From assembly GCA_001770415.1 (NCBI GenBank), contig MEQX01000024.1, positions 10,983 through 74,982 of the forward strand: 64,000 bases of DNA, read 5' to 3'. Made by a program: the position numbers and the translations under genes. The first letter of the stretch is position 1, and each line of letters starts with the position of its first letter. Shown here one piece after another: positions 8,252-32,197 of this stretch. The notes below the pieces were generated by a model. The model did no database searches. It had not been told where the DNA came from and was given only the letters and a program-made list of their open reading frames with translations. This DNA is from Betaproteobacteria bacterium RIFCSPLOWO2_02_FULL_63_19 (lineage in GTDB: Bacteria; Pseudomonadota; Gammaproteobacteria; Burkholderiales; SG8-39).

Positions 8252-9226
8252 ATGTCTCGCGCCACCATGAAGCTGTTGTTTGCCGCCGTCCTCGCCGCCA
8301 CCGCGGTCAGCGGCGAAGCGCTCGCGCAACGAGTGACCATCGTCACGAATCAGCAGGGCTCTCTCGCCTATTCGGCAGGCGCCGCGCTGGCGAAGGTCAT
8401 GAACGAAAAGCTTGGCACGCAGGCGCGGATTCAACCGACCGGAGGCTCATCGACGTTCTATCCGCTGCTTAACCGCGGCGAGGCGCAGTACGGGTTCTCC
8501 AGCGCGCTCGAGACGCTGTTCGCGCAGACGGGGACCGGCACTTACGAAGGCAAGCCGCTGCCCAATCTGCGCGTCGTCGCCGAAGTATTCGATCTGTTCC
8601 AGGCGCTGTTCGTCGCCAACGACTCGCCGGTCAAGAAACAGTCCGATATCAAGGGGCTCAAGATCGGCGGCACGTTTACCAGCCAGAAGATCGTCACCTA
8701 TACGCAGAACGCCCTGCTCGCCAACGCCGGACTCAAACCGAGCGACATGATCGAGGTGCCGGTCACCAATGCCAACGGCGCAATCAACGGTGTGGGCGCG
8801 GGCAGGATCGACACTTCGTTCGGGCCGCCGGGCTCGGGCGTGGTGCAGAATGCGCACGCCGCCCTCTCCTCGCACGGCGGCATACGGTTTCTGCCGATCG
8901 ACACCTCGCCTGAAGCGCTGCGGCGCATGCGTGAAGTAATACCGATGGCCAGCGCGTTCATGCTCAAGCCCAGGAAAAACCTCCCGGGGATACTGTCGGA
9001 AATCCCGGTCATGGCCTACCCGTTCGCGCTGGTCGCCGGCAAGGACACGCCTGACGAGCAGGTCTACCAGCTGGTAAAGATGATGTACGCAAACAAGGCG
9101 GCGCTTGCGAAAGCTTTTCCCGCATACGGCCGCTTCAATCCGAAGAACATGGCGCGAATGAAGCAGGGCGAATTCCACCCCGGCGCCATCCGGTTCTACA
9201 AGGAAGCAGGAATCTGGACGCGATAG
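8252..9226 (+). CDS. TAXI-family TRAP transporter solute-binding protein
   Basis: Signal peptide; QPTGGSS, EQVYQLVKMMYAN, FHPGAIRFYKEAGIW; RBS GAGGAGG upstream. Confidence 0.9.
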   Translation: MSRATMKLLFAAVLAATAVSGEALAQRVTIVTNQQGSLAYSAGAALAKVMNEKLGTQARIQPTGGSSTFYPLLNRGEAQYGFSSALETLFAQTGTGTYEGKPLPNLRVVAEVFDLFQALFVANDSPVKKQSDIKGLKIGGTFTSQKIVTYTQNALLANAGLKPSDMIEVPVTNANGAINGVGAGRIDTSFGPPGSGVVQNAHAALSSHGGIRFLPIDTSPEALRRMREVIPMASAFMLKPRKNLPGILSEIPVMAYPFALVAGKDTPDEQVYQLVKMMYANKAALAKAFPAYGRFNPKNMARMKQGEFHPGAIRFYKEAGIWTR

Positions 9227-9276
9227 TGGCCGCATAATCGGACTAAGCCGGTGGACCGGAAATCCCGGTACGACCG

Positions 9277-11298
9277 ATGACGGAACCGTCCGAGGACAGC
9301 AAACAGCTCGACCCCGGGAGCAGCGGCCGGCGTCCCGGTGTGCCGGTCGATCCCGCTGCCGATCCCACATCGGCGATGACCCGATCGGCACGGATCACGG
9401 TACGCGTCCTGTGTATCACGGTCGTGCTGCTGTCGATGGCCTGGGTGCTTGATTTGCCGCAGCGCGTGGGGCGGGCGTACTTTGCCGGCCAGTTGTTGAG
9501 CCTGGTCTATGGGGTCGGATTGGCCGCTGTGTACATGGCGGTCCCGCTCAGTCGCGGGCGGCGCCGAAACCCGGTGCCGTGGTATGACCTGCTCGTCGGC
9601 GCCGTCGCGCTGTGCACGCTTGCCTGGGTAGCGATCGAGTTCGAACGATTGCTCGACGCGGTGCCGTTGCGCACTCGCGAGACGATCGCGATCGGCGCCG
9701 TCATCCTGCTGCTCACGCTCGAGGCGCTGCGCCGCACCGCAGGGTACCTTTTGCTCGGCGTAGTACTGATCTTCGTGGTCTACGCGCTGGTCGGGCATCT
9801 GGTCCCCGGCGAACTCACGGCAACCTATGTGCGGCGCGACTATCTGCTCGTCTACCTCAGTTTCGATCCCAGCGCGCTGCTCGGCGCGCCGATTCGTATC
9901 GCGACGACGATCGTCATCGCGTTCATATTCCTCGGACAAATCCTTTTCAAGGCCGGTGGCGGTGAATTTTTCACCGATCTCGCCAAAGCGACGACCGGTC
10001 ACGCGCGCGGCGGTGCGGCGAAGATCGCCGTTGTCGCCTCTGCGCTGTTCGGCACCATCTCGGGCAGCCCGGCATCGAACGTCACCTCGACCGGAGTGAT
10101 CACCATCCCGCTGATGAAGCAATCAGGCTATCGCGGCGTCGACGCCGGGGCGATCGAAGCGGTTGCCTCGACCGGAGGGCAGTTCATGCCGCCGGTCATG
10201 GGTGCGGCCGCTTTTCTGATGGCCGAATTTCTCGAAATAGCCTATGCCGACGTGGTCATCGGCGCGATCGTGCCGTCGCTCCTTTACTACCTCGCGGTGT
10301 TCGTGCAGGTGGATCTGTTGGCCGCGCGCGATCGAATCGGTATGCTGGGCGGTACGCCTTTACGCGCGCTGAAGGTGTTGCGCGACGGCTGGCATTTCAT
10401 CATCCCATTCGCGCTGCTGATATGGCTGCTGTTCCACTACCGCACCGACCCGGAACTGGCAGCACTGTACGCGGCGGTCGTAACGCTGATCGGCGGTACT
10501 CTGCGTCGTTACGGATCGCAGCGGCTGACGCCGAGCGGGGTGCTGGCGAGCTTCTGGGAAACCGGGCTGATCGTCGTGGAACTGCTGCCTATTCTTGCAG
10601 CAGCGGGTCTGGTGATCGGCGTGCTCAACGTAACCGGTGGTGGATTCGCCTTGACCCTGGTGCTGGTCAAACTGGCGGGCGGATCGAGTTTCGCCCTGCT
10701 GCTGATCTCGGCCGCCGTGTGCATCGTTCTCGGCATGGGCATGCCGACCACGGCGGTGTACATACTGCTCGCGGCCCTGATCGCCCCTGCGCTCGTCGAG
10801 GCAGGCGTGCCGATCTTTTCAGCGCACCTGTTCATCCTCTATTACGGCATGCTGTCGATGATCACGCCGCCGATCGCGCTGGCCTGCTTCACGGCAGCGG
10901 TAATTTCACGCGAAGACCCGATGGCAATCGCGTTCGCGTCGATGCGTTTTGGCTGGGTCGCCTACGTGATTCCGTTCATGTTCGTACTTTCGCCGACGCT
11001 GCTGCTCAATGGCGCGCCGATGGCAATCGCATTCAACTGCGCCACCGCGGCCATTGGGGTGTACTTTTTCTCGGCGGCTCTGATAGGTTTTGTGCGAACG
11101 CCTCTGAACGTCCCGGAGCGCCTGCTGCTGAGCGTCGGAGGTATCGCATCGATCGTACCGACGACCGTGCTCACGTACGGAACACCGATCATTGCCGCGG
11201 GACTGCTGCTGGGGGGCGGAGTTCTTCTGCGCCAGCTGCGAAGGCAACGTGCACCTGTGCGCGACCCCGGATGGAGCAAAGAACCTGTTTCGAAATGA
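9277..11298 (+). CDS. TRAP transporter fused permease (4TM/12TM)
   Basis: RGGAAKIAVVAS, EAVASTGGQFMPPVMGAAAFLMAE, GMGMPTTAVYI, SMITPPIA. Confidence 0.92.
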   Translation: MTEPSEDSKQLDPGSSGRRPGVPVDPAADPTSAMTRSARITVRVLCITVVLLSMAWVLDLPQRVGRAYFAGQLLSLVYGVGLAAVYMAVPLSRGRRRNPVPWYDLLVGAVALCTLAWVAIEFERLLDAVPLRTRETIAIGAVILLLTLEALRRTAGYLLLGVVLIFVVYALVGHLVPGELTATYVRRDYLLVYLSFDPSALLGAPIRIATTIVIAFIFLGQILFKAGGGEFFTDLAKATTGHARGGAAKIAVVASALFGTISGSPASNVTSTGVITIPLMKQSGYRGVDAGAIEAVASTGGQFMPPVMGAAAFLMAEFLEIAYADVVIGAIVPSLLYYLAVFVQVDLLAARDRIGMLGGTPLRALKVLRDGWHFIIPFALLIWLLFHYRTDPELAALYAAVVTLIGGTLRRYGSQRLTPSGVLASFWETGLIVVELLPILAAAGLVIGVLNVTGGGFALTLVLVKLAGGSSFALLLISAAVCIVLGMGMPTTAVYILLAALIAPALVEAGVPIFSAHLFILYYGMLSMITPPIALACFTAAVISREDPMAIAFASMRFGWVAYVIPFMFVLSPTLLLNGAPMAIAFNCATAAIGVYFFSAALIGFVRTPLNVPERLLLSVGGIASIVPTTVLTYGTPIIAAGLLLGGGVLLRQLRRQRAPVRDPGWSKEPVSK

Positions 11299-14572: not shown

Positions 14573-14600
14573 AGGCCGTGCTGGAATCGAACCAGCGGCC
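14573..14600 (-). repeat. Degenerate direct repeat of tRNA-Lys 3' half (candidate att relic); folds as a hairpin
   Basis: 24/28 identity to 32126-32153 in the same orientation; minus strand GCTGG-TTCGATT-CCAGC-ACGGCCT vs tRNA GCAGG-TTCGACT-CCTGC-ACGGCCT. Confidence 0.7.
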
Positions 14601-14633: not shown

Positions 14634-14996
14634 CTAGGACGTCTGTTCGCCCTCGGACGGTTCGTCTGCCGCCGGCATCTCGCTCGTTTCCCCGCAACCG
14701 GGATCGGCAAAGGTGATTTCCCAGTTCGACGAGTTTCCACGTTGCTTCATTATCACGTCGTATTGGGCGTCGGGAAGCAACTTGCCCTTGTCCTTGATCC
14801 CGCTGACCTCGAGGCAGGTGATGCGCAGTTCACCAGTACGCACATCGAACGTCGCCGTGGACTTGTCGGTCGAGTCGCCGGTCGTCGTGGGTTGCGTCGC
14901 CGGGTCACCCTCGCCGGGGCTCTGTGCGCCTGCCGTCGGCGAAAACATGATGGCGCAGGTCAGTGCGCAGATCGGTATCAATTGTCGTGTAGTCAT
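14634..14996 (-). CDS. Small secreted hypothetical protein (~120 aa)
   Basis: Likely start MTTRQLIPICALTCAIMFSPTAGAQ (signal peptide); Thr/Ser-rich linker; two Cys in the mature part. Confidence 0.6.
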   Translation of the reverse strand: MTTRQLIPICALTCAIMFSPTAGAQSPGEGDPATQPTTTGDSTDKSTATFDVRTGELRITCLEVSGIKDKGKLLPDAQYDVIMKQRGNSSNWEITFADPGCGETSEMPAADEPSEGEQTS

Positions 14997-15246: not shown

Positions 15247-16605
15247 TCAGCGTCGGGTGTCGATTCCGTAGGTGGGCAGTTTCTTTCGCCACCAATCTTC
15301 GGTGGAAAGGGGCTTGCCGTAACCGAGCATCTTGTCGAGTTTCACCAGAACTCGATTGAACACGCTCGTGCGCCTGACGAGCGCTTTGATGGTCCGAAAC
15401 ACGAGCGTGTTCGGCTTGTTCCAGGGGCAGACCGGAACGCAGATGCCGCAAGCGCCGCCCTTCGACTCGGCATAGGCCCAACAGACGGGCCAGCGGCCAT
15501 GCCAGGTCTTGTGACCCGGATTGACCCATTCTCCCGGTCGATCGAAACTGGGTTCCCGGTCTTTGCTGACGGCATCGACCGGGCACGCTTCGATACACCG
15601 GTCGCAGACCTTGCAGAACGCTTCGATACCGAAGTCCTGCGGTTGATCGAGTTCCAAAGGCAGATCGGTGATGATCTTGCAGATCCGGATCATCGTTCCC
15701 AGATCGGGATTGATCACCTTGTCGGCTCGGCACTGCTCGCCCAATCCGGCCTCGATCGCGAAAGGTCCGTTCGGGGCCGTGTCGTTGGACGAAGGAATGG
15801 CCGTATACCCCAGTACGCGTATGAACTCGGCCATGGGCGCCAACAGCTGGTCGATCCGGGAATACGTGAAGAACGGGCCCATCGAACCCACCGGATCCGG
15901 CGCGCAGCCGAACGCGTCGTAAGGCATCTCCAGCAGGAAAACGATCACGTAGCGGCATTTCTCCGGAATCACCCGCTTCTCGCCGGTTTCATAAGGCTTG
16001 TCGACGTCTTCGAAAACGACCTCCTTCCCGTCGCAGTCGCGGCTGTAGACATGGCGTTTGTCCAGCCCGGTGATGCCCACCCGCGCGGCGCCGAACTGGA
16101 TTCCTGCATGCTTTACGATCTGTGCCGCTTCGCGGGGACTGCCGCTGTAGCGAGACACGCCAAGCTTTTCCGGCGTCGGCAGGCCGGCGGTGAGCGGCGT
16201 CCATGACTTGAGTCCCCAATTGGGTATGTTCGGTCCGCGGCAGAATTCCGCCGTTGCCGCGCCCGCGCTTTCCGTCGCGACCGGGCCCGTCGGTGTGCCG
16301 TACGTTTGCCCGCGTGTATAGACGCTCTTGACCGCCGAGTAGAGGGCCACGTCCTTCAACGTATTCCCCGGCGTGTTTGTCTCGATTCCCTGCACCATTT
16401 TCTTGCGCGCCTTGGCGCGAACCTTGGCCTGAACACCCTCAGCGTAATATTGCCCGTAATACAACGCCGACTTGCGCTTATCGAATCTGCCGTAGGTCCG
16501 GTCGTCGATGAGCTTGGTCAAGGGACTCTTGAAGGTATTTCGATCACCCGTTGCATCGGCAGCGGGCGAAGGTTCCATAAATTGACGCTGGATTGAAACG
16601 TTCAT
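15247..16605 (-). CDS. rdhA: Reductive dehalogenase catalytic subunit (RdhA-like; corrinoid and 2x[4Fe-4S]), no TAT leader
   Basis: FCKVCDRCIEACP and CGICVPVCPWNK; AGLGEQCR..INPDLG..RICKIITDLPL; N-terminal RFDKR, PGNTLKDVAL, GSPREAAQIVK, VFEDVDKPYET..VIPEKC; RBS AGGAG. Confidence 0.88.
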   Translation of the reverse strand: MNVSIQRQFMEPSPAADATGDRNTFKSPLTKLIDDRTYGRFDKRKSALYYGQYYAEGVQAKVRAKARKKMVQGIETNTPGNTLKDVALYSAVKSVYTRGQTYGTPTGPVATESAGAATAEFCRGPNIPNWGLKSWTPLTAGLPTPEKLGVSRYSGSPREAAQIVKHAGIQFGAARVGITGLDKRHVYSRDCDGKEVVFEDVDKPYETGEKRVIPEKCRYVIVFLLEMPYDAFGCAPDPVGSMGPFFTYSRIDQLLAPMAEFIRVLGYTAIPSSNDTAPNGPFAIEAGLGEQCRADKVINPDLGTMIRICKIITDLPLELDQPQDFGIEAFCKVCDRCIEACPVDAVSKDREPSFDRPGEWVNPGHKTWHGRWPVCWAYAESKGGACGICVPVCPWNKPNTLVFRTIKALVRRTSVFNRVLVKLDKMLGYGKPLSTEDWWRKKLPTYGIDTRR

Positions 16606-16724
16606 CGCTTGAATCTCCTGATCGACGACATGCGCAAAACCTGCGAGCCCTCTCCCGATCCACCCCTCACGCGACCGGTCGCCGCGCGTCGGACGCTGCC
16701 CGCCGGCGTGACGGTGGCGCGGAC

Positions 16725-16758
16725 AAAAAAGCGGCCTCCTCCGAAGAACGCAAACCGC
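16725..16758 (-). terminator. Intrinsic-terminator-like hairpin in the rdhA upstream region
   Basis: Minus strand GCGGTTT..TTC-TTCG-GAG..GGCCGC followed by TTTTTT. Confidence 0.45.
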
Positions 16759-17081
16759 AGCATTTTGCTCCTTATTTCGAACAGCAGGGAAATCGATGCC
16801 GGCCCCGATCCTCGTCGCCGACCGCCAAATCCGCTCGTCCCCGTTCGCGCCGCGTAGCGCGGCCTCCCCCGGGGCCGATCGACACCGCGGCGTGCGCTAT
16901 GGGGTCGCCACGTCAGCGCGCAGTCATTCCTCGCCGGAGGCGGAAATTTGCGCAATTTTATTAGACAATTTCGCGGAAAGTCGCCTAAACTACCGAAAAG
17001 ACGATGGTTTGACGAGCTGATGGAGTTGTCCGCGCGTTCGATCCGCCGGCGGGCGCGAGACCTCATCGAAAGGAAACAGTC

Positions 17082-18062
17082 ATGCGCGCGCTGATTCGGT
17101 ATTTTTCCCTCGTTTTGCTTCTTGCGCTGCCGGCTTCGGCCGCATTTGCTGCTTCGGCCTACGTGCACAGCCTCTCGGGCACGCTCGCCGCGCGCGTGGG
17201 TCCGGGCCCGGCCATACCGCTCAAGATCGGCGACACCTTCGATCCCGGTGTCACGCTGGTCACCGGTGCAAACAGCGACGCGGTAGTCAAGTTCGAGGAC
17301 GGGCAGGTCATTACGCTGGCGCCGAATACGCAGTTTGCGGTGCGCGAGTACAACTACAACAAGCGCTCGGTGCGCGAGAGCAACGTCGTCTTCGCGCTGT
17401 TGCGAGGCGGCCTGCGCTTCGTCACCGGGGTCATCGGCGCGACCAACCGCAATGCGTTCAAGCTCAACGTCGGCACCGCGACCATCGGCGTGCGCGGCAC
17501 CGACGGCGTGGTCACTTATGACGATATCGCGAACATCATCACTGCGGCGACAAACGCCGGCGCTCTGCAACTGCAGAATCAGGGCTTCCTGACCGGCGTT
17601 GCATCCGGCCAGATTACCAGCGGGAGTCTCACTCGGGGTCAGACATATGCGAGCGTGGCGATTGCTCAAGCGACCCCGGACCTGACAGCGGCGATCAATT
17701 CGATAAACGCGAAGGCAATACCGATTAACACGCCGGTTGTGGTCGCCGCGTCCGCCCGTGCGGCGGCGGCGCAGGAGGCGGCGCGTATCGCGCAAGCGGC
17801 AGCTGACGCACCCGGCGCAACACAAGCCCAGCTTGAGCTGGCACAACGGGCTGCGCAACTGGCGCAGGACGCACTGAACACTGCGATCGCCGAGGCAGTA
17901 AACGCGTTCAACGCCGCGCAGGCCGGGGGCGGCCAGATTCCGGCGCCGCCGGCCCCGGTCGGCCCGGTCGAGACCGGACAGGCCGCAACAACGGGCCAGC
18001 AGGGGCGGCTGCAGAGCGTGATTGAACAGCTTCAGCCGCCGCCGAAGCCGCTGAGCCCGTAA
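17082..18062 (+). CDS. Secreted FecR-domain protein with Ala/Gln-rich helical and Pro-rich tail
   Basis: Signal peptide; VTGANSDAVVKFEDGQVITLAPNT, LLRGGLRFVTG, TATIGVRGT. Confidence 0.8.
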   Translation: MRALIRYFSLVLLLALPASAAFAASAYVHSLSGTLAARVGPGPAIPLKIGDTFDPGVTLVTGANSDAVVKFEDGQVITLAPNTQFAVREYNYNKRSVRESNVVFALLRGGLRFVTGVIGATNRNAFKLNVGTATIGVRGTDGVVTYDDIANIITAATNAGALQLQNQGFLTGVASGQITSGSLTRGQTYASVAIAQATPDLTAAINSINAKAIPINTPVVVAASARAAAAQEAARIAQAAADAPGATQAQLELAQRAAQLAQDALNTAIAEAVNAFNAAQAGGGQIPAPPAPVGPVETGQAATTGQQGRLQSVIEQLQPPPKPLSP

Positions 18063-18082
18063 GGGTCTGAGACGCACCTTTC

Positions 18083-18114
18083 GGCCCGCCGTACTCGTTG
18101 CGAGGCGGCGGGCC
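18083..18114 (+). terminator. GC-rich hairpin downstream of the FecR-domain gene
   Basis: GGCCCGCCG...CGGCGGGCC inverted repeat; no U-tract. Confidence 0.35.
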
Positions 18115-18469
18115 ATCGATCCACGTCGGTGTGGCGGAGGGCGCGAGTGTTCAAACGACTTGACTCGCAATTCTCCGCGCGGGTCTGGCTCTGTCAGCAT
18201 TGTCTTGTGACGTTTCAAGCGATCCGACAACGCGCGGCGCGTACACCCGAGTTCGACGGGCACGAAAGCGACCCGATCTATCCGGGCTTCACCTCGTGAG
18301 ACGCTCTCAATGCAACAGCAAGATATTCCCGGCGTTGTTCGCCCACCCGGTTCGGATACAATCCCCGGCAGTTCCCGGCGCGCCGCGCGAGGCGGGCGCA
18401 GACGATGGCTTTCGCGTGATTTGACTCGCGCCGGCTGACCGCCCCTGACCTGGCCTCCCGGGCGCTCAC

Positions 18470-19195
18470 ATGAAAAGGTCCGTTTCACTCCTCCTTCGGG
18501 CAGCATTTGTTTTCTCCTGCGTCGCCTTGCTGGCCTTTGCCGCCTGGCAGGCCAGCCTGCGCGGGCGCGCCGACCTGACGGCGCAGGGGCCGACTGCGCA
18601 GGTGGAGCGGTGGGCCCGAGGCGGCCGGATCGACTCGCTCCAACGCTGGAGACGCGCGGTGGACGGCCTGCGCGCGGCTCAGGCGCTGGTGCCGGGCGAA
18701 GCCGCGGTCTATGCATCGATGGCGCGCGCGTACTCGCTGGCGGCGATCTCCGCGCCAACGCCGTCAGCCGCAAGCGTGTACCGCGAGTTTTCGCTGCTGC
18801 ATTGGCGCCTCGTCACCATGCTTCGCCCGACCTGGCCGTACGGCTGGTCGGGGATTGCGACCCATACGTTCAACCTGGGTTACGCAGACGTCATGGGTGC
18901 GCTTTCGCGCGCGATGCGCTACGGTCCGTGGGAACCGGGCGTTCAGCTTTTTGCCTCACGCGTCGGGTTGTTACGCTGGGAGCTGCTCGACTCGACGCAG
19001 CGCGAGGAAGTGCGGCAGAACTGGCGCCGCACCGCGCAGCGCCAGGGTGAAGCGCTGGCGCGGATGGCCGTCGAACTGAAGCGCGAGCCGATACTGTGCG
19101 CCGAGGGCCTGCCTGGTATGCAGAAGCGGCTCCAATGCGACAAGCGCCGAAACGCGGCGCCGCGCAAACGCGCTGGAAACCGGATGACGCGATGA
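18470..19195 (+). CDS. VpsP-like polysaccharide biosynthesis / TPR-like protein
   Basis: N-terminal TM; RPTWPYGW...ALSRAMRYGPWEPGV pattern; coupled (ATGA) to an O-antigen ligase gene. Confidence 0.6.
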   Translation: MKRSVSLLLRAAFVFSCVALLAFAAWQASLRGRADLTAQGPTAQVERWARGGRIDSLQRWRRAVDGLRAAQALVPGEAAVYASMARAYSLAAISAPTPSAASVYREFSLLHWRLVTMLRPTWPYGWSGIATHTFNLGYADVMGALSRAMRYGPWEPGVQLFASRVGLLRWELLDSTQREEVRQNWRRTAQRQGEALARMAVELKREPILCAEGLPGMQKRLQCDKRRNAAPRKRAGNRMTR

Positions 19196-20691
19196 GGGCA
19201 GCGCACGAGCGCCGTAGCGCCGACGCCTGGGTGTTCGGCCTGTTCCTCGCGCTGCTCTTCTGGGCGCCGTTGCCGCTGGGGAGCGCGCGGCCCTGGGCCT
19301 GGACGATCCTCGAGCTCGGGATCTATTTCCTCGCCGCGTGCTGGCTCGCGCTGTGGGCGTTCGGCCGCGCGCGCGTTCGCGCGCCCTGCCGAGAGGCCTG
19401 GCCGGTGCTGACGTTGTTCGCGATATGGCTCGCGATCGTCGGTGTGCAGCTGCTACCACTGCCGCGCGAGATGGCGGAAATCATCTCGCCCGAATCGCTG
19501 CGCGTGTGGCTGGATGCGGGGCGCTTCGCCGAACGCGGCTATCCGGTGTCCACCGAGCCTGAGGCGACGACGGTGTTTCTGTTGAAGAGCCTCGCCTACG
19601 CGCTCGCGTTCTTTCTGACGCTGGTGCTCGCCGACCGGCGCGAACGGCTGAAGGCGCTCGCTTTCACGCTCGTCGCCTCGGGACTGCTGCAGGCGCTGTA
19701 CGCGAGCTTCGGGCATCTGCTGCAGCTGCAATACGAATTCGCCTTCACGCCGTTGAACCACGGCGATCGCGCGATCGGCACCTTCCGCAACCCGGACCAC
19801 CTGGCGGGGTACCTGGAACTCGCGCTCTCGGTGGGGATCGGCATGATGATCGGCACGCTGCGCGAACGCGCGCCGCGCACCTGGCGGCAGCGCTTGCGCG
19901 ACTGGGTGGGCTGGATGATCAGTCCGAGGATACTGCTGCGCCTCGTGCTCGTGGTGATGGTGATCGCGCTGGTGATGACGCGCTCGCGCGGCGGCAACGG
20001 GGCGTTCTTCGCCAGCATGCTCGTCGCCGGGGCGCTCGGCCTCGCGCTTTCGCGCCACGCGACGCGCTCGGTGGTGATTCTGATCGCGAGCCTGGTGGTG
20101 ATCGACGTATTCATCGTCGGCGCGTGGTTCGGCGTCGACAAGGTGATGCACCGCCTCGAACAGACCTCGCTCACGCGCGACGCCAGGGCGGTAGCGGGCA
20201 CCAGCGAGCAGTCGCTCGAGGAGCGTGGCGACCCGGCGCTATTCGCGCTGAACATGGCACGCGACTACCCGTGGCTGGGCAGCGGCGGCGGCACGTTCGC
20301 CAGCACGTTCATGAAGTACCGCACCGAGGAACTCGCGGGCGACTTCTACGTCAACGCCGCGCACAACGACTACGCGCAGTTCCTCGTGGAGACGGGCGTC
20401 ATCGGCCTCGCATTGATGGGCCTCGTTGTGCTGCTCTGTTTCGTCACCGCGCTGAAGGCACAGTACCAGCGCACCGACCCGCTCGCGCGCGGCGTCGCGT
20501 TCGGCGCCACGATGGGCATCGTCTCGCTGATGATCCACAGTTGGGTGGACTTCAACCTGCAGACCCCGTCGAACGCGCTCACTTTCGTCGTGGTACTGGC
20601 GATGGCGTGGCCGGCGGCGTACGTCGGGCGGCAGCGGCACGCGAGCGAGAGCGAGGAAGACCGCGCGGCAGCGGGAACGGCGCCAGGGTAA
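19192..20691 (+). CDS. O-antigen ligase / Wzy_C-family polymerase-like membrane protein
   Basis: GTFRNPDHLAGYL, TRSRGG, PWLGSGGGTF, AHNDYAQFLVETGVIG, HSWVDFNLQTPSN. Confidence 0.85.
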   Translation: MRAAHERRSADAWVFGLFLALLFWAPLPLGSARPWAWTILELGIYFLAACWLALWAFGRARVRAPCREAWPVLTLFAIWLAIVGVQLLPLPREMAEIISPESLRVWLDAGRFAERGYPVSTEPEATTVFLLKSLAYALAFFLTLVLADRRERLKALAFTLVASGLLQALYASFGHLLQLQYEFAFTPLNHGDRAIGTFRNPDHLAGYLELALSVGIGMMIGTLRERAPRTWRQRLRDWVGWMISPRILLRLVLVVMVIALVMTRSRGGNGAFFASMLVAGALGLALSRHATRSVVILIASLVVIDVFIVGAWFGVDKVMHRLEQTSLTRDARAVAGTSEQSLEERGDPALFALNMARDYPWLGSGGGTFASTFMKYRTEELAGDFYVNAAHNDYAQFLVETGVIGLALMGLVVLLCFVTALKAQYQRTDPLARGVAFGATMGIVSLMIHSWVDFNLQTPSNALTFVVVLAMAWPAAYVGRQRHASESEEDRAAAGTAPG

Positions 20692-20744
20692 CTGCACCGT
20701 TCCGGGCGGGCGTGCGCCTCGTCCCGACCGAGGGCGGCGGGCCG

Positions 20745-22385
20745 CTATTCCTTGGCGGAATACTCGTGCGGGATGTACGGAGCGCGCTCGTACGCGGGCG
20801 CGTACGGCGTGTGCTCGCGCGCCTTGGCACGATCCTTCTCGCGCCCCATGCGGTCGCTGCCGCCCAGCCAGTAGGGCTTCAAGCCGCGGCTTCGCCACCA
20901 GATCTCGGGCGCCGCCTTGGCGCTCCAAAGATCGCATCTCACGCAGCGTCGGGCTTCCTCCGTCGCTTCGCCGTCGGAGTAGCCGCGCTCGGCGAGTTCG
21001 AATCCACGTGCCCGCGACTCCGGCGGGAGTTCGCTCATCGAAACGCAACCCTTGCCCTGCGGATGGATGTCGGGGTGGTAATCCATTTCCTCTCCCGCTT
21101 CGGGCGCCAGTATTTCCGCGATGTCGCCGCTGCCCCCGAGGTAGCGGTCGATCTCCTGCGCGGCCGATCTCCCCTGCGCGATCGCCTTGATCACATTGAG
21201 CGGTCCGAGCACGACGTCTCCGCCGGCGAATACGCCTTCGCGGCTGGTCTTCAACGATCCGTCGGCTACGGCGATGGTCCCCTCGGCACCCCTGGCCAGT
21301 CCCCACGCGTCGGAGACCCCGGGGGTCTGACCGATCGCCGCCATGATCGTATCGGCGGCGATGGCATAGTCGCTCCCGGGCACGGGCTGCACGGCCGCCC
21401 GTCCGCTCGCATCCGCCTGTCCGAGCTGCATGCGCTGCAACCAGAGTTTGAGTGCGCTGCCGTCGCGCTCGATGCGCAGCGGAGAGGTCAGGAACTCGAC
21501 CTTCACGCCTTCGGCCTCGGCCGCACGCATCTCGAAGTCGTAAGCCGGCATCTCCTTACGGCCGCGGCGGTACAGAATGCGCACGTCTTGGGCGCCCAGC
21601 CGCAGCGCGGTGCGCGCGCAATCGACTGCGACGTTTCCTGCGCCGATGACCGCGACGCGTTTCCCGACCGTGGGGCGGCGGTTCTGTTCGACGCCCAGGT
21701 TGGCTTCCTTGAGAAACTGCACGGCTTTCCAGACGCCGGGAAGATCCTCGCCGGCGATCTCGAGGTCCCGCGCGATGCAGGTGCCGACCGCCAGGAACAC
21801 CGCGTCGTAGCCTGCGCGCTTGAGTTCGTCCAGATCGTCGACGCGCTGATTGCATTTCACGTCGACGCGGTGCGCGGTGATCATCGCGATCTCCTCGTCG
21901 AGCGCCTCGCGCGGAAGCCGGTTCGGCGGTATCCCGATTCGCAGCTGTCCCCCCGGCTTCGGCTGTGCCTCGAATACGGTGACCTCGTGCCCGCAGCGCT
22001 TGCCGAGATAGTAGGCCGCGGTCAATCCGGCCGGGCCCGAACCGACGACCGCCACACGCTTCCCGGTTGCGGCGGCGACCGCTTCGCCCCAGCGCTCTTT
22101 CCATACTCCGGTGTCCTTTTCGACGGCGGCGCGCTTGATGGCGTTGATCGCCACCGGCGCTTCCCACAGTGCGCGGCGGCACTCGGGCTCGCACGGCCGG
22201 TAACAGACGTATCCGCAGACCGCGGGGAACGGAATGCGCTCGCGCACGACTGCCGCCGCTTCCCCGAATTTTCCCAGCGCTGCATACCCGATGTAGCGGG
22301 GAATATCGATTCCCGCCGGACACCCCTCGACACAAGGCGCCCGCTGCCGTCCGCCGCCGTACGACTTTCCACTATGGTTTTCCAT
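20745..22385 (-). CDS. GltD/DPD-like NAD(P)H:FAD oxidoreductase with N-terminal Fe-S domain
   Basis: CVEGCPAGIDIP, CGYVCYRPCEPECRR, VVGSGPAGL, VIGAGNVAVDCAR, YRRGRKEMPA, GVFAGGD, EARRCVRC. Confidence 0.88.
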   Translation of the reverse strand: MENHSGKSYGGGRQRAPCVEGCPAGIDIPRYIGYAALGKFGEAAAVVRERIPFPAVCGYVCYRPCEPECRRALWEAPVAINAIKRAAVEKDTGVWKERWGEAVAAATGKRVAVVGSGPAGLTAAYYLGKRCGHEVTVFEAQPKPGGQLRIGIPPNRLPREALDEEIAMITAHRVDVKCNQRVDDLDELKRAGYDAVFLAVGTCIARDLEIAGEDLPGVWKAVQFLKEANLGVEQNRRPTVGKRVAVIGAGNVAVDCARTALRLGAQDVRILYRRGRKEMPAYDFEMRAAEAEGVKVEFLTSPLRIERDGSALKLWLQRMQLGQADASGRAAVQPVPGSDYAIAADTIMAAIGQTPGVSDAWGLARGAEGTIAVADGSLKTSREGVFAGGDVVLGPLNVIKAIAQGRSAAQEIDRYLGGSGDIAEILAPEAGEEMDYHPDIHPQGKGCVSMSELPPESRARGFELAERGYSDGEATEEARRCVRCDLWSAKAAPEIWWRSRGLKPYWLGGSDRMGREKDRAKAREHTPYAPAYERAPYIPHEYSAKE

Positions 22386-22408
22386 AAGTCATCCCCATGA
22401 TCAACGCG

Positions 22409-22627
22409 CTACCACGCCGTCACCATACGGCGCTCGTGAACCGACACCACCTGGATCGCATCCTCGGGACATTCCACCTCGCAGAGGAAACAGCTCTGGC
22501 ATTCCCGGAGGTATTTGATGTAGGCCTTCTTTGTCGACGAATCGAGCCTTATGACGTCCAGCGGGCACACGTCGACACACACGTTGCACCCTATGCACAG
22601 CTTAGGGTCGATTACTCGGATGCCCAT
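22409..22627 (-). CDS. 2x[4Fe-4S] ferredoxin (AprB-like)
   Basis: MGIRVIDPKLCIGCNVCVDVCP...CQSCFLCEVECP; overlaps the end of the upstream flavoprotein gene. Confidence 0.85.
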   Translation of the reverse strand: MGIRVIDPKLCIGCNVCVDVCPLDVIRLDSSTKKAYIKYLRECQSCFLCEVECPEDAIQVVSVHERRMVTAW

Positions 22628-24360
22628 TCTATCCTCCCGTCCTTGACACTCACGACGCCCTGATCCCGGGCCATCTTCCACAGATACGCGAGCTCCGCTT
22701 CACGCTTGGGCGCGACCGGATAGGTATCGATGGGAATATCCTCCGTCCACCACTTCTGCTCGCCGCCTTCCTGGCGCACGCGGATCCACTTGAGCCAGTT
22801 CACGTTGTCGGTGAACGGATAGTCCTCGCGCAGGATGTTGCGCGTTTCCTTTCTTTCAATCGCCGCCTTCAGCGTGAGTTCGGCGGTCAGAGTCAGGTTC
22901 TTGACTTCGTGACACAAGCGCAGATAGTGCAGGTCGTACGCGCCCAGCATCGGCAGGTCCTGATCGCGAATGGTTTCGACCCGCTGCAGCGCCCGCGCCA
23001 TGCGCCGGCCCTCGCGCAGAAGCAGCACATCGTACGGGATCACCGCTTCCTGCAGTTCCAGCAGCACATGCTCGGATTCCAGTCCTTCCGGTCTGGCGAG
23101 CGGCGCGAACGCCCGCTCGCGCAGTTCGCCCACCTGCCCGTTCTCGTCGCCTGGATCGCCGGCATCGCGCGCGCAGCGGGCGGCCGAGGTTCCGGCGCGC
23201 GCGCCCGAGGTCGCAGCCGCCGCGAGGCCTGTGACGACCGCGCTCGGCGGGCACGCTTCACCTGCGGCGAACAGCCGCGGCGTGCGCGAAGCGTAATCGC
23301 GGTCCACGACGACACCGGGCCGCGTCGTCGGACCGGTGGGACAGAACTCGACCGTCTTCCGGAATTTCCCGTCCTGCACGACGCCTACGCTTTCGAACTC
23401 CCGCTGCGGCAGCGGCAGCATCTGGTACAAGCGCCCCATCTGCTCCGGTCCGAAGTGCCTCGCGTCCATCATGATGGGCGCTCTGCCCATGCGCGCCTCG
23501 ATGCAGAAGAACGCGACGATCTGGGGCAGTCCGGAACGCTCCTTCAGTTTCGGGCTGTAGCGCACCATGAAGCGCTCGCCCTTCGAGTTCAGGAAGTAGG
23601 CGCCTTCGCCCATCCACTTGTTCATGCCCGGCCCGACGTCGACGCGGGCGGGCATCGCGTTGGCCGGCTGGTCGTTCTGTTCGCCGCCGCCCAGCGTCGC
23701 CCCGATGCGGTAGGCCATCGCGAACCCGTCGCCGGAACAGTCGCGCTGTCCCGGGTGAATGCTTTTGTAATAGGTGCTTCCGGTCGCGAGGACCGTGGCC
23801 CTCGCACGCAGGGCATGGAAATCGCCGCTGTGCTGGTGAAAACCGACTGCCCCGGTGACCTCGCCATTGCGCGAAAGAAGGTCGGTCAAGTAAAGCCGGT
23901 TGATCTGCTCGACGCCGATCGACTGCGCGTATTTGCGCAGCGAATCCATCAGCTGGGTGCTGAAGAACTGGACGATCGGGTAGGCGCCGCGCCCCGCCAT
24001 GCGCCGGTAGCTGCCGTCGGTGTTCATCACCAGGTGCACGCCGTAGCGGCGCAGTTCCTCGAGGATCACGTGGCTTTCCTGCAGGTGGTCCCTGATCAGG
24101 TCCTGCTGCGCGAGATAGCCCTGCGCGCGGGTCAGCCGCAGGACCCTGTCGTCGAGGTCGTCTTCCGGAAAGCAGACGTGTATCACGCCGGCCGCAAAAC
24201 AGCTGTTGCCGGTCTTGCCGACGGTGCCCTTGTCCACCTGAACCACGCGACGGGCTCCCGCCTGCTTGGCCTTGATCGCGGCGAACGTGGCCGCGATGCC
24301 GCCGCCGATGACCAGCACGTCGATGCCGTCGATAGTGTGAGTTTGAACCTGTAGCGCCAT
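22612..24360 (-). CDS. FAD-binding oxidoreductase of the SdhA/FrdA/AprA/NadB fold, unknown substrate
   Basis: DVLVIGGGIAATFAA, VLATG, SGDGFAMAYRIGA, GEGAYFLNSKGERFM, LFAAGE, KETR..LREDYP. Confidence 0.8.
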   Translation of the reverse strand: MALQVQTHTIDGIDVLVIGGGIAATFAAIKAKQAGARRVVQVDKGTVGKTGNSCFAAGVIHVCFPEDDLDDRVLRLTRAQGYLAQQDLIRDHLQESHVILEELRRYGVHLVMNTDGSYRRMAGRGAYPIVQFFSTQLMDSLRKYAQSIGVEQINRLYLTDLLSRNGEVTGAVGFHQHSGDFHALRARATVLATGSTYYKSIHPGQRDCSGDGFAMAYRIGATLGGGEQNDQPANAMPARVDVGPGMNKWMGEGAYFLNSKGERFMVRYSPKLKERSGLPQIVAFFCIEARMGRAPIMMDARHFGPEQMGRLYQMLPLPQREFESVGVVQDGKFRKTVEFCPTGPTTRPGVVVDRDYASRTPRLFAAGEACPPSAVVTGLAAAATSGARAGTSAARCARDAGDPGDENGQVGELRERAFAPLARPEGLESEHVLLELQEAVIPYDVLLLREGRRMARALQRVETIRDQDLPMLGAYDLHYLRLCHEVKNLTLTAELTLKAAIERKETRNILREDYPFTDNVNWLKWIRVRQEGGEQKWWTEDIPIDTYPVAPKREAELAYLWKMARDQGVVSVKDGRIEWASE

Positions 24361-24362
24361 GT

Positions 24363-26021
24363 CTACTCCTTTGCCTGCCGTACCGACAGAAACCGCTGCA
24401 CGAGATCGAGCCTGTTGACCTTGTTGCTATCGAGTCGGGGAAACTCGTCCATGAGGAGCACCTCCTCGGGAATCTTGTAGGACGCGATGTTCTTGCTGCG
24501 CAGGAACGCATCGAACTCTTCCGGGACGACATCCACGCCTGTCCGGGGTATCACGAATGCGCAGGGTACCTCGCCGAGCACCGGGTGCGGAACGCCGACC
24601 ACTGCGGCTTCGAGCACCTTGGGGTGGCGGCACAGTATGGACTCGATCTCCGCCGGGTGGACCTTGTTGCCGCCGCGGATAATGACCTGCTTCTTGCGCC
24701 CCAGTAGCGAGAGGTTGCCCTGGGCGTCGATACCGGCGAGATCCCCGGTGCGGAACCATCCTTCGCGGCCGAGTTCTCCCCAGGCGCGACGCGTGGCCTC
24801 GAGGTCACGGAAATATCCGGAACTGGTGCCTGGGCCCCGGACCCACAGCTCGCCGACTTCTCCCGCAGGAACTTCCTGATTCGTCTCGTCGACGAGCTTC
24901 ACTTCGATTCCCGGCAGCGCGCGACCCACCGACCCGCCAAGGCGAATCTCGCGCGGATCGTCCAATGCCGCCTGCGCGATGGATACCGTTTCCATGCTGC
25001 CGTAGGCCGGCGCCATCACGCATCCGAGCTTCGCTTCGGCTTCCTGCGCCACCGAAGGCAACAGCGCCGCGGTTCCGGTTCGGATCACTCGCAGCGAACT
25101 CAGATCGTAGCGCGATAGATCCGGGTGCTCCAGGAGTCGCAGCAGTATCGCCGGAACGGTACCCATGAAGCTCACGCGCTCGCGCTCGATCAATTCGAGG
25201 ATCGTCTCCGCCGCCATCGATTCCGACAGCACCATCCGGCATCCGAGTTGGGCCGCGATCAGCCAGGCCATCGCGCCGGCGCCACCGCCCACCGGGGCAA
25301 AGATCCCGACCACGTCCTCCCGAGTGAGTTTCAGTCGTGATGCTATTCCCGATCCAATCAAGACTTGAGCGCCCTCGGGCCACTCGCAGACTTTCGGTTC
25401 GCCGGTGCTGCCGCTGGAGAGCGAAAGCAGAGAAACCTCGTCCGGCCCATAACGGGTCTGGTCCAGGCAGTCGGGTCGAATCTCCGGATCTGCACGCCGC
25501 TGCATCAGGTCGTTCAGCGATATTGCGCCGGCCGGAACCCGGTCCCCCGACACGAGCAAGTGCGGCTGCGCTTGCGAGCGGTCTTCATCGCGGATGCTTG
25601 CCATCATCTCCAGGTAGTCGAATCCCCGGAATTCGTCCACCAGCAGCACGGCCTTGGGATCGAGGTACCGGAACATGGGCCCCATCTCTGACTGACGCCA
25701 CATGATCGGTGCGAATGCCGCCAGCAGACCTGCTTTCTTCAACGCGATCCGGACCAGCAGATTCTCGACGCCGTTCGGAAGCTGGATCAGGACAAGGTCG
25801 TCGCGCTTTAGCCCGAGGTCCAGCAACCCCAACGCGAGCAGATCGGACTGATTCTTGACCTGGGCCCAGGTGAGCCGGCTCTGACGGTCCGACATGGCTT
25901 CGCCGTCCGGAACGTCCGTCGCGTGGCGCTCGAGCGCGCGGACCATCGTGTCGGGCGACCACAAGCCCCGTTCGAGATATTCCCGAACCATCTCCTGCGG
26001 CATGCGCGTTGGTTTCGACAC
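24363..26021 (-). CDS. AMP-dependent acyl/aryl-CoA ligase (ANL superfamily; DhbE/cyclohexanecarboxylate-CoA ligase-like N-terminus)
   Basis: SSGSTGEPK, YGSME, WFRTGDL, GRKKQVIIRGG, YKIPE. Confidence 0.88.
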   Translation of the reverse strand: MSKPTRMPQEMVREYLERGLWSPDTMVRALERHATDVPDGEAMSDRQSRLTWAQVKNQSDLLALGLLDLGLKRDDLVLIQLPNGVENLLVRIALKKAGLLAAFAPIMWRQSEMGPMFRYLDPKAVLLVDEFRGFDYLEMMASIRDEDRSQAQPHLLVSGDRVPAGAISLNDLMQRRADPEIRPDCLDQTRYGPDEVSLLSLSSGSTGEPKVCEWPEGAQVLIGSGIASRLKLTREDVVGIFAPVGGGAGAMAWLIAAQLGCRMVLSESMAAETILELIERERVSFMGTVPAILLRLLEHPDLSRYDLSSLRVIRTGTAALLPSVAQEAEAKLGCVMAPAYGSMETVSIAQAALDDPREIRLGGSVGRALPGIEVKLVDETNQEVPAGEVGELWVRGPGTSSGYFRDLEATRRAWGELGREGWFRTGDLAGIDAQGNLSLLGRKKQVIIRGGNKVHPAEIESILCRHPKVLEAAVVGVPHPVLGEVPCAFVIPRTGVDVVPEEFDAFLRSKNIASYKIPEEVLLMDEFPRLDSNKVNRLDLVQRFLSVRQAKE

Positions 26022-26095
26022 GATGGCTTCCTCAAACCCGAAACCATAGTAAGGTCATTGCAGAACGTCAAATTTATTCTCAGTAGCTATTACAT

Positions 26096-26110
26096 TTACA
26101 TATGTATATG
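26096..26110. promoter_or_regulatory. AT-rich dyad between the divergent CoA-ligase and LysR genes (candidate LTTR site)
   Basis: TACATATGTA palindrome (26097-26106) inside a T-N11-A frame, in an AT-rich spacer. Confidence 0.35.
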
Positions 26111-26153
26111 CTTAGGCCAGCATCCACAATGGGCTTACGCAAAGGGGACCGGC

Positions 26154-27065
26154 GTGAACTTGCATCAACTCAAACTGTTCTGCGCGGTCGTGGAAACGGG
26201 AAGCTTCGCCCTCGCAGGAGAGCGACTTCACATCACGCAGCCGGCATTGAGCATCCAGGTCCGACGCCTTGAACTGGGTCTGCGCACGGTGCTATTGCGA
26301 CGAAACAAGAAGGGACCGATGCTCACCGACGCGGGCAAGGTCGTCTACGATGCGGCGAAAGCGATCTTCGAGCGCGAGGACGGGCTGCAACGACAACTCG
26401 AGGAAATCCGCTCAGGAGAAAGAGGCACGCTGGCCGTTGCGATAAGTCCGACCGGCGTGCTGTATTTCGCCTCGCAGTTGATTCAGGCGTTCAAGCGCCG
26501 CTTTCCTGCCGCCGCCGTGATACCGACGATCGGAACGCGCGAGGAAGTCCTTGAACGGGTGGCGCAAGGAAGCGCCGATCTGGGTTTCGAATGGGGCCCG
26601 ATTACCCATCCGCGGCTGGTCCACTCGGCTCTTATCCGGGCTCGTTTTCTTGTGGTCACGAGTCCTGAACACGCCTTCGCCGATAAGAAGGTCGTCCGGG
26701 TGTCGGATTTCGTGCACGAACCCTTGGTCGATCTGGACCACGGCCCGGGAACGCCATCCTTCGTCGAGCAAGCTCTTCTGAAGGCGGGAATTCGGCCGAA
26801 GACCGTGCTTCGCGTGCCATCGATCGACGCGATGAAAAGCCTCATTGAAGCGAATCTGGGCGTCGGAATGCTGTCGGACCTTTCGGTCGAGCGCGAGGTT
26901 GGCCTGGGACTTCTGAAACCACTGCCGTTGCAAGGGTTTCCTCTCGCCCGAGATCTCGTCGTCGTGTCACGCAAGGACGGCCCGATTTCGCGGGCGACCG
27001 CCTCATTCCTGGAATTCGCCGCGAGCTACCGTGCCCCGGTGTCTGCGCGGCCCCGGAGTCGCTAA
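26154..27065 (+). CDS. LysR-family transcriptional regulator
   Basis: GTG start; NLHQLKLFCAVVETGSFALAGERLHITQPALSIQVRRLE HTH. Confidence 0.92.
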   Translation: MNLHQLKLFCAVVETGSFALAGERLHITQPALSIQVRRLELGLRTVLLRRNKKGPMLTDAGKVVYDAAKAIFEREDGLQRQLEEIRSGERGTLAVAISPTGVLYFASQLIQAFKRRFPAAAVIPTIGTREEVLERVAQGSADLGFEWGPITHPRLVHSALIRARFLVVTSPEHAFADKKVVRVSDFVHEPLVDLDHGPGTPSFVEQALLKAGIRPKTVLRVPSIDAMKSLIEANLGVGMLSDLSVEREVGLGLLKPLPLQGFPLARDLVVVSRKDGPISRATASFLEFAASYRAPVSARPRSR

Positions 27066-27080
27066 CCTCGAAACCCCGCG

Positions 27081-32121: not shown

Positions 32122-32197
32122 TGGTAGGCCGTGCAGGAGTCGAACCTGCGACCAACGGATTAAAAGTCCGCTGCTCTACCAACTGAGCTAACGACCC
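32122..32197 (-). tRNA. tRNA-Lys(UUU)
   Basis: GGGTCGTTAGCTCAGTTGGTAGAGCAGCGGACTTTTAATCCGTTGGTCGCAGGTTCGACTCCTGCACGGCCTACCA; 76 nt, encoded CCA; follows cpoB as in other proteobacteria. Confidence 0.97.

Follow-up and report, generated by a model that had tools for sequence, protein, structure and literature searches.

The locus examined here raises the question of what a reductive dehalogenase of respiratory descent could be doing in the cytoplasm of a groundwater betaproteobacterium. The window, that is, the whole stretch of DNA that was analyzed (64,000 nt), comes from the metagenome-assembled genome (MAG) of Betaproteobacteria bacterium RIFCSPLOWO2_02_FULL_63_19 (4.65 Mb, 116 contigs, 92% complete). 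The RuvB encoded by this MAG shares 85% identity with that of a MAG labeled Betaproteobacteria bacterium. At positions 15247-16605 of its minus strand lies an rdhA gene coding for a 452-amino-acid (aa) protein, P0001, of the RdhA family of corrinoid/2x[4Fe-4S] proteins, which is predicted to be cytoplasmic. A preliminary description had proposed a corrinoid enzyme of respiratory ancestry, repurposed for catabolism and dependent on an external low-potential electron donor. We favor, with a probability of about 0.6, a functional soluble RdhA that would act in the cytoplasm to dehalogenate an imported or intracellular halogenated aromatic compound with the help of a soluble low-potential donor.

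P0001 scored 237.4 bits with the NCBIfam RDH subfamily model TIGR02486 (cut-off 160.35) and 58.9 bits with the Pfam Dehalogenase model PF13486 (cut-off 24.3), which places it in the RdhA family. The QueG model TIGR00276 gave 49.1 bits against a cut-off of 200, which leaves it outside QueG. When compared with PDB sequences, P0001 matched PceA of Sulfurospirillum multivorans (4uqu, E=4e-50), the PceA of entry 8Q4H (9e-41), NpRdhA (1e-27), and QueG (7e-6); the bit scores were 174 for PceA versus 100 for NpRdhA. An AlphaFold (AF2) model built on 45 relatives had a mean predicted local distance difference test (pLDDT) score of 86.5, with disorder confined to residues 1-21 and a loop at 102-119. PceA entries were the best Foldseek matches of this model (template modeling (TM) score 0.72-0.74, E ~1e-27), ahead of NpRdhA (0.52-0.61), which the model covers only in part (TMt 0.35-0.41), and of QueG (0.34). 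Length, profile search, and model all describe one RdhA domain, with no vestigial N-terminal domain and, as the preliminary description had said, no fused reductase. That description had also set the protein apart from the catabolic NpRdhA/BhbA type and asked whether it would cluster with QueG; it is of neither type, and it groups with PceA-type sequences in the tree described below. The host encodes a separate QueG on contig C67.

All of the motifs first read from the translation could be located, namely RFDKR (residues 40-44), PGNTLKDVAL (79-88), GSPREAAQIVK, VFEDVDKPYETGEKRVIP, and GLGEQCRADKVINPDLGTMIRICKIITDLPL, together with both iron-sulfur (Fe-S) motifs. The first of the latter, CKVCDRCIEACP, supplies C331, C334, C337, and C341 and is closed by P342; the second is made of C375 and of C386, C389, and C393 within CGICVPVCPWNK, followed by P394 and then by W-N-K. 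In the sequence alignment, Tyr246, Asn272, and Arg305 of PceA correspond to Y248, N274, and R307 of P0001. Conservation was assessed in 45 relatives, 29 without and 16 with a twin-arginine translocation (Tat) signal: Y248, R293, R307, and all eight cluster cysteines are invariant (45/45), and N274 is at least 90% conserved. The features that define RdhA proteins, the Fe-S motifs and the Tyr with its Arg and Asn partners, are thus retained, and family, fold, and residue conservation can be taken as established.

The Tat-less relatives also have residues of their own. C122, C191, C309, D295, and P244 are at least 93% conserved among them and absent from their Tat-bearing sister clade; D295, which adjoins R293, is invariant in the Tat-less clade and replaced by N in the sister. 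The core stretch EQCRADKVI, singled out earlier as an odd substitution, is indeed present, but it is not a defect, since with D295 it belongs to the signature of the Tat-less clade. The three signature cysteines might form an additional site.

The gene itself is real, intact, and under purifying selection. Its 452 codons contain no internal stop, and the ATG at 16605 is the first start past an in-frame stop, with an AGGAGA ribosome-binding site 7 nt upstream. NCBI places the start of the same protein at M10, which gives 443 aa and leaves the conclusions unaffected. Comparison with an orthologue on a sister contig, L026 (90% aa identity for rdhA; colinear with the window at ~91% nt identity), gave a ratio of nonsynonymous to synonymous substitution rates (dN/dS) of 0.16. 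The GC content of the gene (0.60, window 0.626) and that of its third codon positions (GC3, 0.75) are near the host values. The sequence is present in groundwater, soil, and sediment metagenomes; none of the RNA runs searched contains it, all matches being DNA metagenomes.

Respiratory RdhAB systems are recognized by a Tat signal on RdhA and by an adjacent rdhB coding for an anchor with two or three transmembrane segments. Neither was found, as the preliminary description had already reported. The N-terminus of P0001 is hydrophilic, has neither an RR motif nor an h-region, and has no in-frame extension that could hold an RRxFxK signal. Over the whole protein, the highest Kyte-Doolittle mean in 19-aa segments was 1.08, that is, there is no transmembrane segment. 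A hydropathy scan of all open reading frames (ORFs) of 40-200 aa on both strands between 12.5 and 19.5 kb revealed no small ORF with several transmembrane segments on either side of rdhA, and no rdhB was found at eight related clade loci. The 120-aa ORF downstream of rdhA (14634-14996, minus strand; 111 aa in L026) was considered as an anchor and rejected, as it has a single Sec-type signal segment, no family match, and not the architecture of RdhB.

A Tat exon hidden by a frameshift was also looked for. The rdhA leader (16606-16866, minus strand) carries the AGGAGA site, appears to be non-coding, and is ~80% identical, with indels, in L026. No sigma-70 consensus site was found on its minus strand, and scans for promoters and terminators around rdhA stayed within shuffled expectation. 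Within the leader, a 53-codon ORF out of frame with rdhA (16602-16762, minus strand) has a strong AAGGAG ribosome-binding site, and its end overlaps the rdhA start codon in the sequence ATGA. Its product would begin with MLRFAFFGGG and end with SIRRFKR; it is Arg/Gly-rich and has no hydrophobic core. Indels of 5 nt and 1 nt destroy this frame in L026, where rdhA and the upstream ATG share one reading frame. Judged from this comparison, the upstream ORF probably does not code for a protein. The first 30 nt surrounding its ATG, which show good conservation, might have a regulatory role. The hidden exon was rejected: the stretch has no h-region, it is broken by indels in the 91%-identical sister contig, and nothing Tat-like lies upstream of rdhA at seven other clade loci.

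How such a protein could have arisen is suggested by its phylogeny. In a maximum-likelihood tree of 121 sequences, the Tat-less proteins form a clade of 39 members (support 100), 39/39 of which have neither a Tat motif nor an h-region. The sister clade (support 99) has 54 predominantly Tat-bearing members, with RRDFFK signals and including a Dehalogenimonas protein, and the next branch out is PceA of S. multivorans. NpRdhA and an NpRdhA-like paralogue of the host genome, encoded on contig C9, form a distant long branch; further Tat-less groups branch elsewhere. Homologues of P0001 down to 48% identity (P0003-P0040) all have no Tat signal, with a short hydrophilic start followed by FKSPLTDLIDDxTYGRFDKRK. 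The next group, at 37-42% identity and including Aminicenantes and Chloroflexota proteins, almost always starts with MxRRDFFKFGLGG. As judged from sequence clustering, the Tat-less clade is compact: in a library of 1.84 billion representatives, made by clustering at 50% identity, it collapses to one representative (52% identity), and the next match stands at 43%. At one sister-clade locus, L038, from an Aminicenantes genome of 2.7 Mb, an ORF for an RdhB-like protein of 79 aa with two transmembrane segments starts 4 nt after rdhA. Respiratory ancestry is supported because the sister clade bears Tat signals and one of its members has this RdhB-like ORF. A loss, in the Tat-less clade, of the Tat signal and RdhB anchor that its respiratory ancestors would have had is supported as well, and the earlier view of a protein of respiratory ancestry that is now cytoplasmic holds.

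The label "Dehalococcoidia-style", however, was too specific. After the 90% orthologue, the nearest relatives of P0001 are 74-75% identical and come from Syntrophus-type loci, including one of Syntrophus sp. GWC2_56_31. A more distant Tat-less clade member labeled Thermodesulfobacteriota is 57% identical, while named Dehalococcoidia proteins are at 27-32%. In a set of 60 related genomes (3 congeneric, 33 from the same family, and the others from the same order), no rdhA orthologue was detected (0/60), the best match being 38% identical; genes of the ~700-aa NpRdhA-like type are common among them. Given this patchy distribution and the Syntrophus-type nearest relatives, rdhA was probably acquired horizontally from Syntrophus-like anaerobic bacteria. 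A possible vehicle is a putative island associated with tRNA-Lys. The tRNA-Lys(UUU) gene (32122-32197, minus strand), which adjoins the core tol-pal gene ybgF/cpoB, is proposed as its proximal boundary, and a degenerate copy of the 3' part of this tRNA (14573-14600; 24/28 nt in the alignment) as its possible distal end. The 17.5-kb stretch between them has rdhA at its far end.

The only recurrent neighbors of the clade members are transporters of organic anions or efflux transporters. Tripartite ATP-independent periplasmic (TRAP) and tripartite tricarboxylate transporter (TTT) systems account for several of them. For P0023, a DctPQM system lies directly upstream of rdhA on the same strand, with a 78-nt gap, and a DctM gene is near the rdhA of P0025. 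For P0010, TctCBA is divergent and a major facilitator superfamily (MFS) gene directly downstream; for P0016, TctCBA is upstream and cupin, HpaB, and DctPQM genes are downstream. In Syntrophus-type loci, an MFS_3 gene directly follows rdhA, and a TetR gene and a resistance-nodulation-division (RND)/outer membrane efflux protein (OEP) pump come next; in the Syntrophus sp. GWC2_56_31 locus (L008, 6764-9365), the MFS_3 ORF overlaps rdhA by 8 nt. This rdhA-MFS_3-TetR-RND operon is kept in several Syntrophus-type contigs, which hints at a dehalogenate-and-export unit. In the lineage of the window, a TAXI-type TRAP transporter and a TctAB fusion lie 4-10 kb from rdhA. The former (8252-11298, plus strand), a candidate organic-acid importer 4 kb downstream of rdhA, consists of a solute-binding subunit (TIGR02122, 160 bits) and a fused permease (TIGR02123, 533 bits). 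The recurrence of transporters fits an imported substrate, or a substrate or product that is pumped out. The aromatic context consists of a CoA ligase and a molybdenum (Mo) enzyme resembling HcrA in the window and of the HpaB and cupin genes beside P0016. Taken circumstantially, the transporter context points to anionic or phenolic aromatics.

According to the reading we favor, electrons would pass from a cytoplasmic low-potential ferredoxin or flavodoxin through the two [4Fe-4S] clusters to the corrinoid. Cob(I)alamin would take the halogen from the substrate, and the proton would come from Tyr248, held by Arg307 and Asn274. Because the enzyme would face the cytoplasm, the organohalide would have to enter by import or by diffusion. 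A phenolic or aromatic acid that carries a halogen, for example a halo-4-hydroxybenzoate, would be the most likely substrate, and the purpose would be catabolism or detoxification, not respiration. Groundwater contains halogenated aromatic acids of natural and herbicide origin. Corrinoid binding, dehalogenating activity, substrate class, and electron donor are all features that we infer from sequence. The proposed repurposing for catabolism would be one possibility; for the Syntrophus-type loci, detoxification is an equally good or better fit.

The corrinoid would probably have to come from outside the cell. On contig C44 (~24000-28280, minus strand), a riboswitch-like leader with a B12 box (AGCCCGGAGACCGGCC), CCACTG, and GGGAA precedes genes for a TonB-dependent receptor and a BtuF-like protein, the latter scoring 176 bits with NF002894, below the cut-off of 234. 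A motif scan of the MAG for precorrin-type methyltransferases, which is a weak test, returned a single CysG-like match (TP_methylase). By these scans (B12-box regular expression, nhmmer, and motif scan), which are weak tests, the host probably imports corrinoids and has no de novo synthesis. Either uptake or synthesis genes had been thought worth seeking in the genome; the former seem to be present and the latter are probably absent.

The same MAG holds other dehalogenase-like genes on contig C9 (14557-23771, minus strand). An NpRdhA-like gene of 745 codons (21534-23771) and a 318-aa RdhA/QueG-like gene (20504-21460) are accompanied there by genes for a SulP-type permease, a sulfatase-like protein, and a TAXI-TRAP system. 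This arrangement points to a catabolic module of its own that may connect sulfated with halogenated aromatics.

Several points weigh against a functional cytoplasmic dehalogenase of aromatic substrates. Activity and substrate are unproven, as no member of the clade has been expressed or assayed, and if corrinoid synthesis is absent, activity would seem to depend on scavenged corrinoids. There is no neighboring gene that accompanies rdhA throughout the clade; the P0039 locus has URO-D and EthD genes and no transporter nearby. In the window, the TRAP and TTT genes are three to four genes away from rdhA on the other strand, a proximity that could be due to chance, and Betaproteobacteria have a great many such genes. 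We found neither an adjacent regulator of the RdhK, MarR, or two-component type nor an operator shared with the nearby LysR operon. Finally, C122, C191, and C309, along with the N-to-D change next to R293, could signal a different chemistry.

The question of the donor leads to the genes around rdhA. In the window, rdhA is a solitary gene flanked by the small secreted-protein ORF and by a divergent gene for a FecR-domain protein. The latter belongs to a 3.9-kb block (16867-20744, plus strand) that codes for FecR-domain, VpsP-like, and Wzy_C/O-antigen-ligase-like proteins and has no counterpart in L026. In that sister contig, rdhA lies 334 nt behind a GltD-like gene on the same strand, and a terminator scan detected no terminator-like site in the gap; the separation of the two genes in the window is due to the lineage-specific block. 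The insertion-free order is LysR, then divergently the CoA ligase, a flavoprotein resembling Frd and AprA, a ferredoxin, the GltD-like protein, and rdhA. A second segment missing from L026 (12109-14023, 1.9 kb) carries a TMEM260_N-like gene (glycosyl/mannosyl-transferase-like) and the part of a glycosyltransferase gene that codes for its GtrA-like end. Cell-surface polysaccharide genes are in turnover on both flanks of rdhA.

In the window, the operon reads as follows. The LysR-family regulator gene (26154-27065, plus strand; the start is approximate, with the helix-turn-helix at residue 78 of the ORF from 25923) is divergent from the operon, which lies entirely on the minus strand. It begins with an AMP-forming acyl/aryl-CoA ligase of 552 aa (24363-26021), for which no specific equivalog match was found. 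A Frd/Sdh/AprA-like FAD flavoprotein of 582 aa, of an uncharacterized family, follows (22612-24360), and its gene is overlapped by that for a 72-aa 2x[4Fe-4S] ferredoxin (22409-22627). The last gene (20745-22385) codes for the GltD-like NAD(P)H-dependent Fe-S flavoprotein of 546 aa (PRK12771, 443 bits; Fer4_20 and Pyr_redox_2 domains). Beyond the regulator lies a Mo enzyme of the xanthine dehydrogenase family (27081-30820, minus strand), composed of an XdhB-like FAD subunit (29942-30820) and a fused [2Fe-2S]+Mo subunit (27081-30173). The Mo subunit is nearest to the alpha subunit of 4-hydroxybenzoyl-CoA reductase (TIGR03194, 851 bits), albeit below the cut-off of 994, and the FAD subunit matches XdhB and reaches 116 bits against a cut-off of 404 with the HcrB model TIGR03195. 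The Mo enzyme may be a hydroxylase, not a dehydroxylating reductase.

This arrangement permits an explanation in which RdhA would be the terminal enzyme of the LysR-controlled operon. Electrons from NAD(P)H would flow through the GltD-like protein and the 72-aa ferredoxin to RdhA; the ligase would provide a halogenated aromatic acid or its CoA ester, and the product would go to the HcrA-like Mo enzyme. The gene order of L026, the origin of the separation in the window, the location of all of these genes inside the same putative tRNA-Lys island, the character of GltD-like proteins as NAD(P)H-linked Fe-S flavoproteins, and the TIGR03194 score of the HcrA-like enzyme all speak for it. The flavoprotein and ferredoxin, on the other hand, occur as an overlapping, translationally coupled pair where there is no rdhA. 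The flavoprotein occurs widely among Betaproteobacteria, Acidobacteriota, Binatia, Chloroflexota, and Deltaproteobacteria, the one of the window being 84% identical to that of Betaproteobacteria bacterium RIFCSPLOWO2_02_FULL_62_17. Three further flavoprotein loci (L035-L037; betaproteobacterial, Chloroflexota-type, and others) all have the overlapping 72-aa ferredoxin gene (3/3) and no rdhA nearby. CoA ligases or a CoA transferase lie alongside, TRAP transporters are present in 2/3, and a GltD-like gene is found only in the betaproteobacterial one. The flavoprotein and its overlapping ferredoxin gene form a widespread, unnamed two-gene unit of several phyla. Because the pair is fixed in loci without rdhA, the ferredoxin would most simply be the flavoprotein's own subunit.

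Other observations also speak against a common operon. The flavoprotein/ferredoxin/GltD-like module adjoins rdhA in none of the seven other clade loci. Co-regulation with the LysR operon was rejected, as the rdhA leader and the LysR-ligase intergenic region share no 14-mer (up to two mismatches) and no dyad. Moreover, rdhA has diverged more from L026 (82.5% nt identity) than its flanks have (91-93%), it is well separated from the operon, and the Mo enzyme falls short of the 4-hydroxybenzoyl-CoA reductase cut-off and has no HcrB signature. We therefore regard the operon explanation as possible but unlikely. What had been proposed for the ferredoxin and GltD-like genes, that they could be the donors, is borne out as far as their location (4.1-5.8 kb away) and their adjacency in L026 are concerned, but not as far as a dedicated role is concerned. 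The module remains a testable and rather doubtful candidate for the electron donor.

A second explanation, which we consider about as improbable as the operon, is that RdhA serves mainly in detoxification. Toxic halophenolics would be dehalogenated, the product or the toxin would be expelled by MFS/RND pumps, and no carbon or energy would be gained. It is in the Syntrophus-type subclade, at 74-75% identity, that this idea finds its support, with the MFS_3 gene immediately behind rdhA and the TetR regulator and RND/OEP system next in line. The rdhA of the window lineage, by contrast, has no efflux genes beside it and has catabolic-type genes instead, and other clade members adjoin importers (DctPQM, TctABC). 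It should be noted that a detoxifying role is compatible with a catabolic one, and the two are not mutually exclusive.

Less likely still is a B12/Fe-S reductase with another chemistry, acting on a non-halogenated substrate, as QueG does within the same superfamily. No member of the clade has been characterized, a set of invariant residues (C122, C191, C309, D295, and P244) is peculiar to it, W376 and Y382 of the PceA pocket both align with Ala in P0001, and members of the clade turn up in metagenomes of pristine groundwater and soil. Against this stand the invariant Tyr/Arg/Asn set of PceA type, the nesting of the clade within bona fide RdhA diversity next to a Tat/RdhB sister clade, and scores above the RDH cut-off and far below that of QueG. 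A protein that is still respiratory, exported or attached to the membrane by an unrecognized route or with its Tat signal or rdhB hidden by a frameshift or mis-assembly, is very improbable: the out-of-frame upstream ORF superficially recalls Tat n-regions and the upstream ATG of L026 is in frame with rdhA, but that stretch is Arg/Gly-rich, has no h-region, and bears indels between close relatives that imply no coding constraint, several independent assemblies carry an identical protein sequence, all 39 clade members are Tat-less with nothing Tat-like upstream at seven other loci, and there is no rdhB-like ORF.

A bolder combination of these elements can be formulated. An RdhA of PceA type, having become cytoplasmic earlier on in Syntrophus-like anaerobes, would have been captured by an aquifer betaproteobacterium into a tRNA-Lys island, directly behind the operon and close to the HcrA-like Mo enzyme. 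Together, these genes would form an undescribed NAD(P)H-driven anaerobic route for halogenated hydroxyaromatic acids, with electrons delivered via the GltD-like protein and the ferredoxin. We judge this complete scenario to be improbable, about on a par with the non-dehalogenase explanation.

The soluble RdhA that we favor matters beyond this locus. Metagenomes contain large numbers of RdhAs of respiratory descent that are cytoplasmic and have no anchor, and no substrate, donor, or role has been established for any of them. The present locus offers a conserved clade and a testable set of partners: the ferredoxin, the GltD-like reductase, the CoA ligase, and the TRAP/TTT transporters. Self-sufficient enzymes of the NpRdhA type receive their electrons from a fused reductase. 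If activity were shown, P0001 would be the first opening for learning how enzymes of this sort receive electrons when they have neither a membrane complex nor a fused reductase, and the potential for reductive dehalogenation would extend to aquifer Betaproteobacteria.

Among the characterized systems, PceA (S. multivorans, 4UQU; Desulfitobacterium/Dehalobacter, 8Q4H) is the closest in build, with a single domain of ~450 aa like that of P0001, and the two proteins share both Fe-S motifs and the Tyr/Asn/Arg set. PceA, however, is respiratory, exported by Tat, and anchored by RdhB. P0001 has no Tat signal, no RdhB, and no accessory genes of the RdhK or RdhT type, is predicted to be cytoplasmic, is only ~25-27% identical over the structural alignment, and has Ala in place of W376 and Y382. 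NpRdhA (Nitratireductor pacificus, 4RAS/6ZY1) and BhbA (Comamonas sp. 7D-2) resemble it in the other respect, as cytoplasmic, non-respiratory, proteobacterial enzymes that act on imported halogenated 4-hydroxybenzoates. They are ~700 aa long with a vestigial second cobalamin-binding-like domain and, in some cases, a fused reductase, and P0001 has neither. QueG shares the B12/2x[4Fe-4S] superfamily with P0001.

The nearest counterparts are known from genomes. Genes for RdhA without a Tat signal or rdhB have been described in Dehalogenimonas lykanthroporepellens, Desulfobacula toluolica Tol2, and DEH-C11 (Wasmund et al. 2016, PMC4959651), in Desulfatiglans single-cell genomes (Jochum et al. 2018, PMC6129605), and, as a "simplified cytosolic type" of ~395 aa, in members of Desulfobacterota and Chloroflexota (Han et al. 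2025, PMC12219181). A literature search found no assay of an RdhA that is both Tat-less and rdhB-less. P0001 shows the traits of the simplified cytosolic type, which are descriptive only, in having no Tat signal, transmembrane helix, RdhB, or vestigial domain, in its length (~400-450 aa), and in keeping its Fe-S cysteines intact. Occurrence in aromatics-degrading anaerobes is a further shared trait. The host differs, being a groundwater betaproteobacterium and not a member of Desulfobacterota or Chloroflexota. Tat-less and anchor-less RdhAs are thus already known from genomes and metagenomes, and P0001 adds a betaproteobacterial member, a well-documented additional example and not a new kind.

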